Of a stretch of 64,000 bases of DNA, positions 3,058 through 34,128 are shown one piece after another (position 1 is the first letter of the stretch; every line of letters begins with the position of its first letter). The DNA lies in IMG/VR virus record IMGVR_UViG_3300012347_000104, positions 1 through 64,000 of that record; one strand, given 5' to 3'. The position numbers and the translations under genes are program-made. The notes under the pieces were generated by a model. The model saw only the letters and a list, made by a program, of their open reading frames with translations, made no database searches and was not told where the DNA came from. Source of the stretch: a virus. Lineage: Duplodnaviria > Caudoviricetes.

Positions 3058-3783
3058 CTAGACTATATCAGGTCGTTTCTCTAATTTGTACTTTTTACCC
3101 AAGAATTCACCGTACATTAGAGCTAGATAACTCAGATAACTCTCGTCATCATAGTCGATAAAGTGTCCCGAGCTTAGCCAATTATGCCAGTACATCCAAC
3201 CTTGTGTCTTGTTAGATGTTAACCAGTATGATAAGCCTGGACTTGGTCTAAGTTGCTTGTTGGTTTTTAAGATATTGCTAAACTTTTCGCGGAAGTCGTC
3301 CGGAGATTTCTTGCTTCTAAGATAGACACGGTACTTGTGTTTGGGTTCGTTGACAAAGGTTTTAACACCCACATAACCTAAACTCTGAACCTCTGTATAG
3401 TCTACTGTCGCATTAGCATGACCGTCAAATGCTGCATGTAGTGCTTGCAAATCGTTGCTAAAGATAGCCGCAGTATTGTGTTCCATTCGAACTGTAACTG
3501 ACTTATCTTTCTTATGGTCATCTCGGAACTGCAAGATTACTTTGATAGCAGGTAAGTTTTGCTTAACAATATCAACTTCGTCTTTAGCAATTCTGCCCCA
3601 GAGTTTGTTATTGCTCAATCGTTCTTCAAATTCTGCAGGGCTATAATAGTAACCTCTACGCAAGCCCTCTACCGTGAACCGAGCACGGTATTGGTACTTG
3701 TTGTAGTATAGTTCGTCTCGGTAGTCGAATAAATCGACACCGGGAGTGTTAGTTGCCGACTTTAATAATGCCATCTTCACCAA
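3058..3783 (-). CDS. hypothetical protein downstream of clpA (start may be ATG at 3774)
   Basis: Intact 241 aa ORF overlapping the clpA end. Confidence 0.6.
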   Translation of the reverse strand: MVKMALLKSATNTPGVDLFDYRDELYYNKYQYRARFTVEGLRRGYYYSPAEFEERLSNNKLWGRIAKDEVDIVKQNLPAIKVILQFRDDHKKDKSVTVRMEHNTAAIFSNDLQALHAAFDGHANATVDYTEVQSLGYVGVKTFVNEPKHKYRVYLRSKKSPDDFREKFSNILKTNKQLRPSPGLSYWLTSNKTQGWMYWHNWLSSGHFIDYDDESYLSYLALMYGEFLGKKYKLEKRPDIV

Positions 3784-6025
3784 TTTCCGCTGATAGTTTT
3801 TGAACTACATCAAAGATGAATTCATCATTCAATCCAATATGAATGTTGATAGTAGCTCCCTTGATTCTTTCGAACAAGATTTTCTTAGACAAGGGAACAC
3901 GAATCAATTCATCAATCTTACGTGCAAGAGGACGTGCTCCCATTTTCTTATCATAGCCTTTGTCTGCAAGCAATTCAATTACTGGCTCTGACATATTGAG
4001 TGTAATGTCATGTGTGTCCAATAGCGATTTCTTCAAATCACTAGTAAACTTAACCACAATCTTCTTAATAGCAAGGGTGTCAAGTTTGTTGAACTTACAA
4101 ATCAAGTCTAAACGATTACGGAATTCAGGTTTGAAGAATTCTTTCAACGCTTTGTCATCTTCGCCAGTCTTTTCAGTTGCACCGAAGCCAATCATTGACT
4201 TTTCACTATCAGCAGAACCTAAGTTACTAGTCAAGATAACAATACAGTTTTTCGCATTGACTTCTTTACCATTTGAACCAGTTACCTTACCTTCATCAAG
4301 CAATTGCAAGAAGATGTTAAAGATATCTGGATGAGCTTTTTCAACTTCGTCAAACAACAAGATTGAGTGAGGGTTCTTGCTCAAGTCACTAATCAAACGA
4401 CCGCCACCTAAATTACCTTCACCGAAGCCAACGTAGCCGGGAGGGGCACCAAGCAATGCTGATACACTGAACTTCTCACCATATTCACTCATGTCGTACT
4501 TGACTAGAGGCATATCTAAGTTCTTAGATAACAAACGAGCCAATTCAGTCTTACCTGTACCAGTTGGGCCTAAGAACAAGAAACTTGCCATTGGCTTAGA
4601 CTGTGTACCGATACCTGCATAAGACACATAGATACGGTCGAGTACTTGGTCAACTGTTTCTGACTGACCAAACAACTTATCTTTCACGTTTGTTTCCAAC
4701 GCTTGAATACGTTCGTAGCTGTCATCTTTCAACTTGTCTGCTGGCACACCTGCGATACGCTCGACTTGGTCGAAAATCATATCTTTAGTGATGATTGCAC
4801 CTTTGTTACCAGCAACACGTTGTTTAGCACAAGCTGCATCTAACAAGTCGATTGACTTATCAGGATTTTTACGGTCATGCATGTAACGTGTAGAGCTTTC
4901 AACTGCTGCCTCGATAGCTGCCTCGGTGATTTCAACTTCATGGAAGTCGTTCAATCGTTGGCTCAGACCGTTCAAGATGCGAACTGTTGATTCTGCGCTT
5001 GGTTCATCTACTGAAACTTTATAGAAGCGGCGCATCAATGCACGATCCTTCTCAAAACTTTCGTAGAATTCTTCCCATGTTGTACTTGCGATGACTTTCA
5101 AGTTGCCTTTAGTGATAGCAGGCTTAATCATATTAGCAAAGTCTGGACCTGAGTTATTTGCTGAGCCAGCGCCTTTCATAGTGTGTGCTTCGTCAATGAA
5201 TAGGATCGCTTTCTTCTTAGCAACCAAGGCTTCCATGATAGCTTTGACTTTTTCTTCAAAGTCACCGCGATATTTACTACCTGCAACGATGTTAGCAACT
5301 TCGAGGCTATACAATTCATAGCCTTTTAAGAATTCAGGGATTTCACCAGACACAATCTTCTGGGCAATACCTTCTGCAATAGCAGTCTTACCGACACCAG
5401 GGTCACCGACCATTAACACGTTTGACTTGAATCGCTTAGCCAATACGTTAACAATGTCGTCAACTTCTTTACTACGACCAATCATTGGTTCTAGTTTATT
5501 GTCACGTGCAAGTGCAGTAAGGTTGATTGTGTATTCTTCTAGAATCTCGTCAGCTTGGTCTTCACTTAGCTTTGACAACACATCTGCGCCTTTGTACGTC
5601 TTCTGCCAATAAGGAACAAATTCAGTCTTAACAATACCGTATTTTAAGAAGAAGTAGTGAGCATGACTATTAGTTTCATGGGCAATACTCAAGTATAGGT
5701 CAATCGTAGTCACTGTCTTACGACCAGTGAACAATACTTGCGTCACGCCTCGATTCATAACACGCTCAAGTGCGTTAGTTTTGCGTGGCTGAACTTCTTG
5801 TCCTTGGTCTACTTTTGCCTTGATGGCATGTAAACTGTCAATATAGTTAGTGACATCTTTGGTCATCATCTCTGTATCGACCCCGAAGCCGTCTAAGCAC
5901 TTTTTAAACGGGGTATGTGAGATTAATGCAAGAAGCAAATGCTCTACAGTACAGTACTCATGGCTTCGGTCTTTAGAAAGAACAATAGCCTGTTCGATGA
6001 TTGCTTCAATTTCAGGTGAATGCAC
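3749..6025 (-). CDS. clpA: ClpA-like ATP-dependent Clp protease ATPase subunit
   Basis: Clp N-domain (HEYCTVEHLLLAL); two AAA+ modules GDPGVGKT/FIDE and GPTGTGKT/FDEVEKAH; IGF loop; 758 aa; GTG start with TAAGGA. Confidence 0.95.
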   Translation of the reverse strand: MHSPEIEAIIEQAIVLSKDRSHEYCTVEHLLLALISHTPFKKCLDGFGVDTEMMTKDVTNYIDSLHAIKAKVDQGQEVQPRKTNALERVMNRGVTQVLFTGRKTVTTIDLYLSIAHETNSHAHYFFLKYGIVKTEFVPYWQKTYKGADVLSKLSEDQADEILEEYTINLTALARDNKLEPMIGRSKEVDDIVNVLAKRFKSNVLMVGDPGVGKTAIAEGIAQKIVSGEIPEFLKGYELYSLEVANIVAGSKYRGDFEEKVKAIMEALVAKKKAILFIDEAHTMKGAGSANNSGPDFANMIKPAITKGNLKVIASTTWEEFYESFEKDRALMRRFYKVSVDEPSAESTVRILNGLSQRLNDFHEVEITEAAIEAAVESSTRYMHDRKNPDKSIDLLDAACAKQRVAGNKGAIITKDMIFDQVERIAGVPADKLKDDSYERIQALETNVKDKLFGQSETVDQVLDRIYVSYAGIGTQSKPMASFLFLGPTGTGKTELARLLSKNLDMPLVKYDMSEYGEKFSVSALLGAPPGYVGFGEGNLGGGRLISDLSKNPHSILLFDEVEKAHPDIFNIFLQLLDEGKVTGSNGKEVNAKNCIVILTSNLGSADSEKSMIGFGATEKTGEDDKALKEFFKPEFRNRLDLICKFNKLDTLAIKKIVVKFTSDLKKSLLDTHDITLNMSEPVIELLADKGYDKKMGARPLARKIDELIRVPLSKKILFERIKGATINIHIGLNDEFIFDVVQKLSAEIGEDGIIKVGN

Positions 6026-30425: not shown

Positions 30426-30486
30426 ATTAAAAAGCCCTCGTAATACTTATTATATTACAAGGGCGTGACAATAAAAAGAGTTTAGG

Positions 30487-31260
30487 TTAGCCTTGTACCC
30501 AAGTCAATGGTTGACTGTAATCTACATAACGCTTTAAGTCTTCTAATAGTGTAGCTTGCATCTCTTTAGATTCATTCTTTAGTGATGCACCATTCAATGT
30601 AGTACCACCGTTAGGTCCTGCGATACTAGCAAACTTTTCACGTGCTTCGCCTAATGTAGACTTCAACACGCTAAGAGTCCAGTCACCAATCCAAACGCCT
30701 GCACCCGGATCTTGTAATAGCTCTGATTCAGGGCGTTGGGTGTCCGCCCAAATAAGGATCTTCTCACCGCTTGCTTTAACATCTCTAACTAATCGTAGTT
30801 GTTTTGTGACAGGGTTGAATGTGTAAACAATGTAACCACCGAACATACGTGCTGCCAATTCAATGTATCCTGCATACATATCGTATGTTGCTAAACCACC
30901 TGAATAGTTATAGTTAAGCAAATATGTGTTTAAAATTGCTGAGGAGAACGGATCAAATGAACTGCTTGATGGACCGGTCTCTAAACCAATCGTTCTACGG
31001 AAAACTTGACGGACATTAATAAACTCTTTAGGTAGAGTATAAATTTCTTGGTGTGCCTCTAAGGGCATTAATGTATAAGATTCCACTGTGGCATTTTGAG
31101 CCCTTTGACGATAAACTTTAATGGCATATTGATATGCTGCTTCATAATGTTCAGGGTCTAACTCAATATCAACCATTCCCTCACCTAATCTAAGACGTAA
31201 GTTCTGGAATAATTCTTCTTTTAATTCAATAAGGGATGACATATATTTCTCCGGATACAT
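30487..31260 (-). CDS. gp13: neck protein (T4 gp13-like); start may be MSSLIEL at 31242
   Basis: LRLRLG..MVDIEL, GEAR.KFASIAGPNGGTTLNG. Confidence 0.8.
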   Translation of the reverse strand: MYPEKYMSSLIELKEELFQNLRLRLGEGMVDIELDPEHYEAAYQYAIKVYRQRAQNATVESYTLMPLEAHQEIYTLPKEFINVRQVFRRTIGLETGPSSSSFDPFSSAILNTYLLNYNYSGGLATYDMYAGYIELAARMFGGYIVYTFNPVTKQLRLVRDVKASGEKILIWADTQRPESELLQDPGAGVWIGDWTLSVLKSTLGEAREKFASIAGPNGGTTLNGASLKNESKEMQATLLEDLKRYVDYSQPLTWVQG

Positions 31261-31284
31261 TATTTATCAGAAAATTCAGTGGGT

Positions 31285-31755
31285 TATGTCTATGGGTTTT
31301 GTGTTAGGTATGTCTCAGATATTCTTAGGCAATGGTGAGTAGATATAAAATCTACAAACCAAAAACATTCTTGAGGAACTTAGGTGATGATGAATTCAAA
31401 AATTACAGTGGAGGATTGTCTATGTCTCACTAACCCATGAAGGGAATTTGCCGTATTCGCTATTAATGACAGTACATGATTCATCAAGAAGTACTGTCTA
31501 GCCCGGGCCCTCTATCACAATTACTATGACCCGGCAAACTATCAACTATTAAGATATGGGAAACGTTTCTACGCAGAGGGTAGACGTTTAAGCATCAGGT
31601 GGTAGTCCCATAAATATGCGTTGGTCACGCTTCTACCGTCACACCACAATGAGGACGGGATATCGCCGCAGTTTGAGGTCGCGGTTTACCTATAGACCAA
31701 TAATCTTTTACTTAACTCGCAATGTTGTGCTAAAAATCACACTACATTGCGAGGA
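31285..31755 (-). ncRNA. candidate large structured non-coding RNA (unassigned)
   Basis: ~470 nt with no credible ORF; at least 9 helices, several closing only with G-U pairs on the minus strand (see finding). Confidence 0.5.
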
Positions 31756-31760
31756 TTGTA

Positions 31761-32198
31761 TTACAAATCGCCTGCTTGACGATTCTCTGAATAATGTGCG
31801 TCAAACGAACCACCTGGATAGCGTGATTCTAGTTTACGAACGTTTTCATCAATGACTTCGTTAGGGTCTAGTCGAAGTGCCCTGCAGGCATTAATCCAGT
31901 ACCACATAACGTCACCGAGTTCACGTTTCATGTGGAAGACTTCATCATCCGACAGACGTTTACCTTGAAAAATGATTTTCTTGGGAACCTCAATGAATTC
32001 ACCTGCTTCGGCTGCTAATCCCATACAAGCTGTAATCAACAATGGCACATTCACATCCGGACCGTGTCGTTGTGTCACCTCATCAAAATTACCATCTAGC
32101 TCATCTAGACGATTCATAAATGTCGTCAAGTCATTACTTGGCTTACTTGTTACAGCCTCTACAAAATCTTTGTACTTGTTTAAATCAATCTTACTCAA
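31761..32198 (-). CDS. mazG: MazG-like nucleotide pyrophosphohydrolase
   Basis: GLAAEAGE..E..KK, ELGDVMWY, N..KLESRYP. Confidence 0.88.
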   Translation of the reverse strand: MSKIDLNKYKDFVEAVTSKPSNDLTTFMNRLDELDGNFDEVTQRHGPDVNVPLLITACMGLAAEAGEFIEVPKKIIFQGKRLSDDEVFHMKRELGDVMWYWINACRALRLDPNEVIDENVRKLESRYPGGSFDAHYSENRQAGDL

Positions 32199-34099: not shown

Positions 34100-34128
34100 A
34101 TTATATATCAGATTCCATTAAATGTCAA
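34100..34128 (-). promoter_or_regulatory. sigma70 consensus early promoter
   Basis: TTGACA-17-TATAAT. Confidence 0.8.

Follow-up and report, generated by a model that had tools for sequence, protein, structure and literature searches.

Is the long gap between two adjacent genes of a jumbo phage mere spacer, a DNA-level element, the remains of a gene, or an RNA, and if an RNA, what could it do? In the stretch of 64,000 nucleotides analysed here (positions 1 to 64,000 of IMG/VR record IMGVR_UViG_3300012347_000104; hereafter, the window), the minus strand carries, in this order, mazG, a gap of ~500 nt, a neck gene, a dNMP kinase gene, and the gene for a 1175-aa tail sheath protein. An initial annotation, made from the letters of this sequence alone, had singled out the gap as a gene-free, highly structured region that might encode an undescribed large RNA. 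The absence of genes is real: at a cut-off of 50–70 aa, positions 31261–31615 constitute the longest internal region of the window without an open reading frame (ORF), and the remainder of the gap, up to position 31760, is covered solely by a spurious antisense frame.

The neighboring genes place the locus among the jumbo phages. The neck protein matches phrog_211, its counterparts in Rak2-like jumbo phages are annotated as neck proteins, and cultured Rak2-like and other jumbo relatives share the order of neck, dNMP kinase, and tail sheath genes. The predicted start of the neck gene is probably at 31242 and not at 31260, since homologues align only from residue 7–10 onwards. In nearly all relatives the synteny is kept, with mazG directly upstream of the neck gene. 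The source record is a 72.5-kb fragment estimated by CheckV to be 21% complete, from which a genome size of ~350 kb follows; related contigs extend to 359–367 kb. The closest cultured phages by neck protein are XaC1, Phosso, and fEgEco12 (36–42% identity), the relatives comprising Xanthomonas phage XaC1 (39%), Sinorhizobium phage Phosso, and E. coli phages of 350–380 kb. An affiliation with cyanophages was considered and dropped, as it rested on mazG similarity alone. By these sequence comparisons, the carriers of the gap element are uncultured phages of ~350 kb, distantly related to the Rak2-like jumbo phages.

Taken singly, the gap sequence would not qualify as "highly structured", given the lack of matches to known RNAs and the weak folding scores. 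None of the 4227 covariance models of Rfam 15 reached its gathering score anywhere in the window. With E-values up to 10 admitted, the gap and ten divergent homologues gave only chance-level matches to miRNA and small RNA families (E 0.7–3.3), none of them recurring, and ARAGORN detected no tRNA or tmRNA in the window. The earlier remark that the region was not recognized as a tRNA, tmRNA, RNase P RNA, or 6S RNA is in agreement with these searches of the window and the ten homologues. The minimum free energy of the gap did not differ significantly from that of dinucleotide shuffles (z = -1.4 on the minus and -1.9 on the plus strand), nor did that of the conserved core (z = -0.9), and so the description as highly structured cannot be upheld in terms of folding energy. 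Folding energy is uninformative for this pseudoknotted RNA. The proposal that an energy no better than that of shuffled controls would refute the RNA would have led to its wrongful rejection, because the z-scores are not significant and yet the structure is conserved. For the same reason, the claim that the structure exceeds chance rests on covariation and not on energy.

A search with the neck protein yielded 80 related loci, in which the length of the mazG–neck gap is bimodal, mostly 27–70 nt, with 420–1020 nt in a subset. The non-coding insert of the window was present in only five of the 80 (73–92% identity). The alignment of these six copies had evident compensatory changes and an invariant 19-mer, GAGACATAGACAATCCTCC, and retrieval by exact occurrence of this 19-mer gave 66 stretches from IMG/VR and 41 from metagenomes, among which were 62 distinct full-length homologues. 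The whole element of ~390 nt is common to all but a few of the 19-mer stretches; the IMG/VR match L147, without any other conserved block, was set aside as a chance occurrence. Because one exact 19-mer collected every homologue, its invariance and the limits of the family are partly set by the search.

Outside these uncultured viruses the element was not detected. Among 185,579 species-representative prokaryote genomes there were three matches to the 19-mer, all of them chance matches without other conserved blocks and situated where the reverse complement resembles a ribosome-binding site followed by ATG. A blastn search of 50,697 cultured-phage records with the gap returned chance matches only, and XaC1, Phosso, and fEgEco12 have neither a comparable gap nor the RNA. 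No paper containing the 19-mer or its 14-nt core was found.

Covariation was counted over the 62 distinct sequences in a MAFFT alignment (A3), with slid-partner controls and 500 shuffles for comparison. Under the fold model, 92.1% of cells are paired, against 36–42% in the slid-partner controls. Changes on both sides occur in 63 of the 93 pairs (controls, 21–29) and in 651 cells (controls, 67–148), and the covariation score is 0.339, the controls reaching at most 0.072. For four of five measures none of the 500 shuffles matched the observed value, and for the fifth, further pair types, two did; a set of 42 sequences led to the same outcome. The criterion for a conserved structured RNA, i.e., compensated pairs beyond those in controls that keep relatedness, is met. 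As judged from this comparison of sequences, the stretch at 31319–31704 on the minus strand is confirmed as a conserved RNA and not spacer DNA (Table 1).

The same alignment identifies the strand and speaks against a coding function. In paired columns G-U combinations number 186 and A-C combinations 76, and U-G is the commonest pair at several positions; this excess indicates that the RNA is encoded on the gene (minus) strand, as had been inferred from a few G-U-extended helices. Of 713 indels scored relative to the window, only 107 have a length divisible by three, and none of the frames remains open, the longest stop-free run in any frame having a median of 61 codons over 455 nt. With covariation across 62 homologues, no Rfam match, and no open frame, the initial suggestion of an undescribed large phage RNA on the minus strand is borne out.

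These observations leave scarcely any room for the idea that the conserved entity is not an RNA but a DNA-level element, i.e., an iteron origin or an array of protein-binding sites, or else a decayed protein gene. An origin with short iterons had been named as the alternative in view of three AGACATA repeats. The repeats exist, but one copy is part of an invariant loop and two lie in the non-conserved spacer, one of these within a 12-nt stretch missing from the closest relatives, and they do not make up an array: Tandem Repeats Finder reported none, and GC skew has no turn. A decayed gene would be consistent with the protein-coding cargo that relatives carry at the same site; however, blastx of the insert against these cargo proteins found nothing (best E = 0.6), and most indels would shift a reading frame. 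Neither variant accounts for compensatory changes in which G-U is accepted on just one of the strands.

Table 1. Coordinates of the RNA, its structural elements, and neighboring features in the window.
Feature	Position	Strand	Description
sigma-70 consensus promoter	34100–34128	-	TTGACA, 17 nt, TATAAT; 12/12 matches
MazG-like pyrophosphatase gene	31761–32198	-	phrog_229, E = 3.5e-45; adjoins RNA on upstream side; stop at 31761
Hairpin after mazG	31716–31753	-	14-nt arms, 93% complementary; outside conserved RNA; lineage-specific
Conserved RNA core, ~386 nt	31319–31704	-	AUUAUUGG at 5' end, CCUAAGAAUAU at 3' end; homology limits, covariation, strand asymmetry
PK3 pseudoknot	31621–31700	-	5' end 31695–31700 UUGGUC with H5 loop 31621–31626 GACCAA
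PK1, H-type pseudoknot	31666–31691	-	S1 31688–91/31676–79; S2 31680–84/31666–70
5'-domain helices H3, H5–H8	31555–31658	-	covariation in 62 sequences
H3	31654–58/31636–40	-	99.4% paired
H5	31628–30/31618–20	-	loop engaged in PK3
H6	31606–12/31555–61	-	99.8% paired, 5/7 pairs compensated; encloses H7 and H8
H7	31585–88/31562–65	-	inside H6
H8	31580–84/31568–72	-	inside H6
Central domain, H9–H11	31459–31534	-	covariation in 62 sequences
H9	31528–34/31503–09	-	99.8% paired, 6/7 pairs compensated; 18-nt conserved loop
H10	31499–502/31459–62	-	100% paired
H11	31491–98/31468–75	-	loop engaged in PK2
PK2 pseudoknot	31388–31486	-	H11 loop 31479–86 with strand 3' of H12, 31388–95
H12	31447–50/31397–400	-	96.7% paired, 3/4 pairs compensated; closes three-way junction with H13 and H14
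H13	31442–44/31434–36	-	within H12 junction
H14 hairpin	31426–32/31406–13	-	stem covariation; 12-nt loop ACAUAGACAAUC at 31414–31425
3' domain	31319–31376	-	motif CCUCAAGAAUG 31366–76; long hairpin H16/H17 31334–31360; second motif copy CCUAAGAAUAU 31319–29
Variable spacer	31269–31318	-	between RNA and neck-gene promoter motif; not conserved among homologues
GATAAATA, late-promoter-like motif of neck gene	31261–31268	-	downstream of RNA
Neck protein (head-tail adaptor) gene	30487–31242	-	phrog_211, E = 3.2e-27
First strict intrinsic terminator 3' of RNA	30434–30464	-	13-bp stem then TTTTT; beyond neck gene

The fold model contains 18 helices with 93 pairs and three pseudoknots. It combines RNAalifold output, a stack-based covariation scan, and a reading of variable alignment regions; RNAalifold alone recovered about one-half of the helices and no pseudoknot, and a permissive pair scan was overwhelmed by G-U noise. 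Pairing percentages of S2, H5, and H17 are underestimates, because MAFFT partly misaligns these helices, as seen in a check by eye.

All three pseudoknots stay paired through complete sequence replacement. In PK3, both sides have changed in five of six pairs, the variants being UUGGUC/GACCAA, UUAGU/ACUAA, UUGAUC/GAUCAA, UUAGGC/GCCUAA, and CUGAC/GUCAG. PK1 has many different S2 stems, and its S1 shifts from AGGU/ACCU to GGGC/GCCC and AGGC/GCCU. PK2, eight nucleotides long and 100% complementary in the window, is 98% paired among homologues with five of eight pairs compensated (e.g., GAUGAAU/AUUCAUC, UAUGAAAG/CUUUCAUA, and CCGUGGUGG/CCGCCACGG), and in the divergent members L094, L100, and L137 its strands have entirely different yet complementary sequences.

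The pseudoknots were missing from the helices listed in the initial annotation, of which nine out of 12 recur in the model with covariation support. In the 5' part of the RNA these are 31666–70/31680–84, 31636–40/31654–58, 31618–21/31627–30, 31555–61/31606–12, 31561–66/31584–89, and 31569–72/31580–83, and further downstream 31503–09/31528–34, 31468–75/31491–98, and 31339–44/31350–55. The other three have no place in it. The 10-bp hairpin 31716–25/31744–53 exists, but lies outside the conserved RNA and is a lineage-specific hairpin following mazG. Helix 31447–53/31532–38 is not conserved, with A-C in 25 and G-A in 15 of the 62 rows at two positions; competition for 31532–34 had been correctly noticed, and this helix loses to the two with which it competes, both conserved. 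Finally, the long-range helix 31292–98/31432–38 extends into the variable 3' flank.

Approximately 45% of RNA positions are at least 90% conserved. The 12-nt loop of H14, ACAUAGACAAUC, is identical in every homologue retrieved by the 19-mer that contains it, subject to the search bias mentioned above. The pairings GGUAG/CUACC, AGG/CCU (which would close the whole RNA), and UCUUA/UAAGA are only putative, as both sides are nearly invariant. The two copies of the CCU(C)AAGAAU motif flank H16/H17 and change in parallel in several alignment rows. About 18 homologues have an additional hairpin between H6 and H9, whose stem covaries and whose loop is a GNRA tetraloop (GUAA, or GAGA in one), and such GNRA-capped hairpins are typical of RNAs with real tertiary structure. 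A pairing of CCUCC in the H14 loop with the Shine-Dalgarno sequence of the neck gene was also considered and rejected: CUC belongs to the stem of H14, and sequence changes in the flanks on the gene side are not compensated.

This degree of elaboration raises the possibility of a ribozyme, which would either excise itself from the operon transcript or act on RNA in some other reaction. In such a ribozyme the active site would be made up of the invariant junctions, and the GNRA hairpin and the pseudoknots would stabilize the core, as they do in RNase P RNA and group I introns. The bacterial RNAs of such size and complexity that have been known longest are mostly ribozymes, which counts for this explanation, as do the size of the present RNA, its three pseudoknots, its many invariant unpaired nucleotides, and the optional peripheral hairpin with a GNRA loop. 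In addition, the sharp 5' boundary, abutting unrelated sequence including stop codons, would suit cleavage at the 5' edge. On the other hand, no ribozyme family of Rfam was matched even at E up to 10, and the 5' domain, as we judge from the order of its helices, does not share the nested double-pseudoknot topology of HDV-like ribozymes. Moreover, the equally ornate GOLLD, ROOL, and OLE RNAs have no known catalysis (bioRxiv 10.1101/2024.12.08.627333). In the absence of activity data we regard a ribozyme as unlikely, while acknowledging it as the main rival to the function proposed below.

Comparison with known large RNAs places this RNA outside all catalogued families, as a new class of large non-coding RNA. 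The closest likeness is to GOLLD (RF01998) and ROOL (RF03087), which similarly span hundreds of nucleotides, have many covarying helices with pseudoknots or kissing loops, contain no ORF, are borne by phages, and have no assigned function. Unlike these RNAs, whose length is ~580–800 nt, the RNA described here has only ~390 nt and is not beside tRNA genes, of which the window has none. GOLLD and ROOL reside in phages and prophages, whereas this RNA is found in lytic-type contigs of jumbo phages and, by the 19-mer, was not found in any of the 185,579 prokaryote genomes. OLE and raiA RNAs, whose roles are at best partly known, also combine complex conserved folds with highly conserved unpaired nucleotides and were also defined by comparative genomics before any function; however, they are cellular (in Firmicutes and Actinobacteria) and not viral, their models do not match, and their architectures are unrelated. 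Since no covariance model matched, the RNA is not a member of GOLLD, ROOL, or OLE. tmRNA and RNase P RNA are of similar size (~350–400 nt) and have several pseudoknots, but there is no Rfam match and there are no tRNA-like ends, no tag frame, and no conserved regions of RNase P RNA. A catalogue of structured RNAs from IMG/VR shares with the present study the data source and the use of covariation in intergenic regions of uncultured viruses; it lists only motifs of 29–151 nt, and while a fragment may be included, the whole 390-nt RNA is not described there (PMC10690425). GOLLD, ROOL, and OLE form RNA-only homo-oligomers, and some covarying "tertiary" pairs of GOLLD and ROOL are intermolecular and build RNA-only cages (bioRxiv 10.1101/2024.12.08.627333). 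By analogy, PK2 could be either intramolecular or, as in GOLLD and ROOL, intermolecular.

The distribution of the RNA is that of an optional gene. In other relatives the mazG–neck site is empty or filled by unrelated protein genes. Other long-gap loci contain different inserts, e.g., a 2OG-Fe(II) oxygenase in L018 (Pfam E = 1e-14), proteins of 160–210 aa with a weak MutH-like signal, and other small ORFs. When mapped onto a maximum-likelihood tree built from 84 distinct neck proteins (33 from loci with the RNA, 51 from loci without it), the presence of the RNA requires at least 11 gains or losses, eight of them forced by well-supported branches. The mean nucleotide identity is 80.3% for the RNA vs. 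73.7% for the adjacent neck gene, with the RNA higher in 33 of 40 pairs, and the two are only loosely coupled, the values in L087, for example, being 88.7% (RNA) and 72% (neck gene). A divergent subfamily (L094, L100, L137, L191), which retains the core, the invariant loop, and PK2/PK3, is situated among unrelated small ORFs and not beside the neck gene. Based on the patchy tree, the loose coupling of identities, and the occurrence of the divergent subfamily in other contexts, the RNA behaves like an autonomous accessory gene, and its site is a hot-spot where other cargo is found too.

Patchy, insertion-like presence at a fixed site is also what an unrecognized group I-like intron, or its remnant, in the transcribed mazG–neck spacer would produce. 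Among large structured RNAs of T4-like and other large phages, group I introns are the most frequent; those of T4-like phages resemble the RNA in size, in the pseudoknotted core, and in peripheral GNRA-capped hairpins, and a homing-endonuclease-like ORF lies downstream at one divergent locus (E = 5e-5). Nevertheless, this possibility is very slight, for several reasons. The model RF00028 remained unmatched even at E = 10 in the window and ten homologues. No gene is interrupted, the RNA being intergenic, with the mazG stop codon on one side and the promoter of the neck gene on the other. The 3' boundary lacks a conserved terminal G, its edge being AAGAAU followed by variable bases. There is no P1–P10 pattern, and the helix order, as we read it, does not map to P1–P9.

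The expression context suggests when the RNA might be made. The motif GATAAATA occurs in 11 copies in the window vs. 3.3 expected, and ten of these copies immediately precede ORF starts on the minus strand. Loci with the RNA and loci without it alike have the motif ahead of the neck gene, usually within an inverted repeat TCTCCAGAT...ATCTGGAGA that is predicted to mask the neck-gene Shine-Dalgarno sequence in transcripts coming from upstream; the layout resembles the late-promoter arrangement of T4. As the RNA sits upstream of GATAAATA, it is inferred to lie outside the late neck transcript and hence not to serve as its leader. The earlier suggestion of a regulatory leader of the neck gene is disfavored on this ground and by the divergent members, which are not beside that gene.

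The sigma-70 consensus promoter heads a five-gene operon that ends with mazG and the RNA, and GATAAATA is absent there. No promoter upstream of the RNA is conserved among homologous loci; in many of them an ORF lies just upstream whose stop codon borders on, or shares nucleotides with, the conserved AUUAUUGG, and a dedicated promoter could not fit at that point. The position of the post-mazG hairpin is taken in other lineages by terminator-like hairpins rich in GC or by a different ORF's stop codon, and in many homologues a terminator-like GC hairpin with a U run is immediately 5' of the RNA. If this hairpin terminates efficiently, read-through from the operon into the RNA would be low. There is no strict terminator between the RNA and the neck gene. 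The simplest reading, inferred without transcript data, is early synthesis by the host polymerase, with the RNA forming the tail of the mazG operon.

The same arrangement could be explained by a cis-acting 3' untranslated end of the mazG operon, which might resist degradation as a cap, provide a processing site, or insulate the neck and tail genes from premature expression by early read-through. The RNA is indeed always on the same strand, right after an ORF or an operon-end hairpin and right before a late-type promoter, and the missing terminator before the neck gene would fit such a role. However, relatives without the RNA keep the mazG–neck junction with a spacer of 27–70 nt, and in them the inverted repeat around GATAAATA already covers the neck Shine-Dalgarno sequence, so that the junction works without the RNA. 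Further, ~390 nt with three pseudoknots and ~45% of positions at least 90% conserved far exceed the needs of known 3' protective elements, and the divergent subfamily resides in other gene contexts. We therefore consider a cis-acting 3' end improbable and rank it second among the rivals, after the ribozyme; the intron, the replication origin, and the pseudogene are close to excluded.

The best reading of these data is an early-made, trans-acting folded RNA, i.e., a scaffold, decoy, or ribozyme, although its function has not been demonstrated. Within this range, a trans-acting binder or self-assembler is favored because the RNA lies outside the late transcript, is independent of its neighbors, is optional and cargo-like, and has many invariant unpaired nucleotides. 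In the mechanism that we propose, the RNA would have no promoter of its own, and would be transcribed by the host RNA polymerase at an early stage of infection, at the distal end of the sigma-70 operon running through mazG. The transcript would then probably be trimmed to a stable folded RNA, which would act in trans as a scaffold or decoy, using conserved loops and junctions to bind a conserved host or phage factor (neither a protein partner nor a target has been identified), possibly as an RNA-only multimer, and which would not be a cis regulator of the neck gene. Taken together, a new class of ~390 nt with early expression from an operon tail, trimming, and action as a trans-acting scaffold or decoy is an account towards which we lean, with slightly better than even confidence. 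Action in trans is inferred only from the position of the RNA and its patchy, context-independent distribution, and expression, RNA ends, processing, and timing are all inferred as well, in the absence of transcript data. A bolder version, possible but doubtful, is a new ribozyme or self-assembling RNA-only machine that disarms or takes over the host in the first minutes of infection, with PK2 intermolecular and the 12-nt loop as the active or binding site.

To our knowledge, the large non-coding RNAs with intricate folds recognized so far in bacteria and their viruses make up no more than about a dozen classes, and nearly all such classes with a solved role that we are aware of are ribozymes or central cellular machines. 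The RNA reported here adds a well-defined class of ~390 nt, with three covariation-supported pseudoknots and an invariant 12-nt loop, and the alignment of 62 sequences is deep enough for structure modelling, design of cryo-EM constructs, and activity tests. Its status as an optional module at a cargo hot-spot of jumbo phages, probably made early, suggests a role in host takeover or counter-defence, processes for which RNA-based mechanisms are still rare.

The junction between mazG and the neck gene is a hot-spot for alternative cargo in the related loci L003–L082, which come from other uncultured viral contigs. Most of these relatives have a junction of only 27–70 nt without any cargo, and in some it is occupied by the RNA. 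Other occupants include a 2OG-Fe(II) oxygenase (L018, L038), proteins of 160–210 aa that show weak similarity to MutH-like nucleases (L025 and others), an ORF of 257 aa (L055), and, in L041–L043, a pair of small ORFs (74 and 90 aa), the same two that are placed between mazG and the RNA in other loci. In L094, which carries a member of the divergent RNA subfamily, the ORF directly downstream of the RNA (5216–5611, minus strand) has a weak homing endonuclease match (phrog_314, E = 5e-5). Elsewhere in the window, a 758-aa product is similar to ClpA/ClpB ATP-dependent proteases or chaperones (phrog_4871, E = 2e-228).

Coordinates of features in the window
Feature	Window position	Strand	Columns in A3 (62 distinct full-length homologues)
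GATAAATA copies	3046, 8733, 19707, 22690, 25779, 31261, 38983, 39364, 41169, 43152	minus	
GATAAATA copy	46434	plus	
Region with inverted repeat before neck gene	31243–31290		
RNA–promoter spacer with ~13-nt copies	31269–31318		
CCU(C)AAGAAU motif	31366–31376		about 580–596
CCU(C)AAGAAU motif	31319–31329		about 662–672
Region with reverse complement of invariant 19-mer	31411–31433	plus	
ClpA/ClpB-like gene	3749–6025	minus	

The 3' domain of the RNA contains two CCU(C)AAGAAU motifs, each preceded by a UCRCC element. Substitutions in the pair are parallel rather than complementary in alignment A3, e.g., CAGUAAU with UAGUAAU in L107 and AAGGAAU with UAGGAAU in L091. The pair looks like a tandem duplicated module recognised by one common partner. 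In the subgroup of the window (also L087, L121, L124, and L136), a sequence of about 13 nt similar to AACCCAUAGACAU recurs loosely, in two to four copies, within the spacer that separates the RNA from the promoter. CAUAGACA is common to these copies and the invariant loop of the RNA; the copies in the window received no score from Tandem Repeats Finder.

The invariant 19-mer, i.e., the search motif containing that loop, has the reverse complement GGAGGATTGTCTATG, a Shine-Dalgarno sequence followed by ATG. This accounts for its chance matches at gene starts in bacterial genomes; in the window, the frame opened by GGAGGATTGTCTATG extends for only three codons.

The motif GATAAATA occurs 11 times in the window against 3.3 expected, and nearly all copies are on the gene strand and directly precede an ORF. 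It is a candidate for the late promoter in this phage lineage. Before the neck gene (in the window and L007–L082), an inverted repeat usually flanks the motif, which then forms part of its loop, e.g., TCTCCAGATAAATACAATATCTGGAGA; the 3' arm of the repeat contains the Shine-Dalgarno GGAG. In transcripts initiated upstream, the repeat would mask the ribosome-binding site of the neck gene, and in those initiated at GATAAATA the site would be exposed. By analogy, we interpret this arrangement as a T4-like device that would restrict translation of the neck gene to the late stage.
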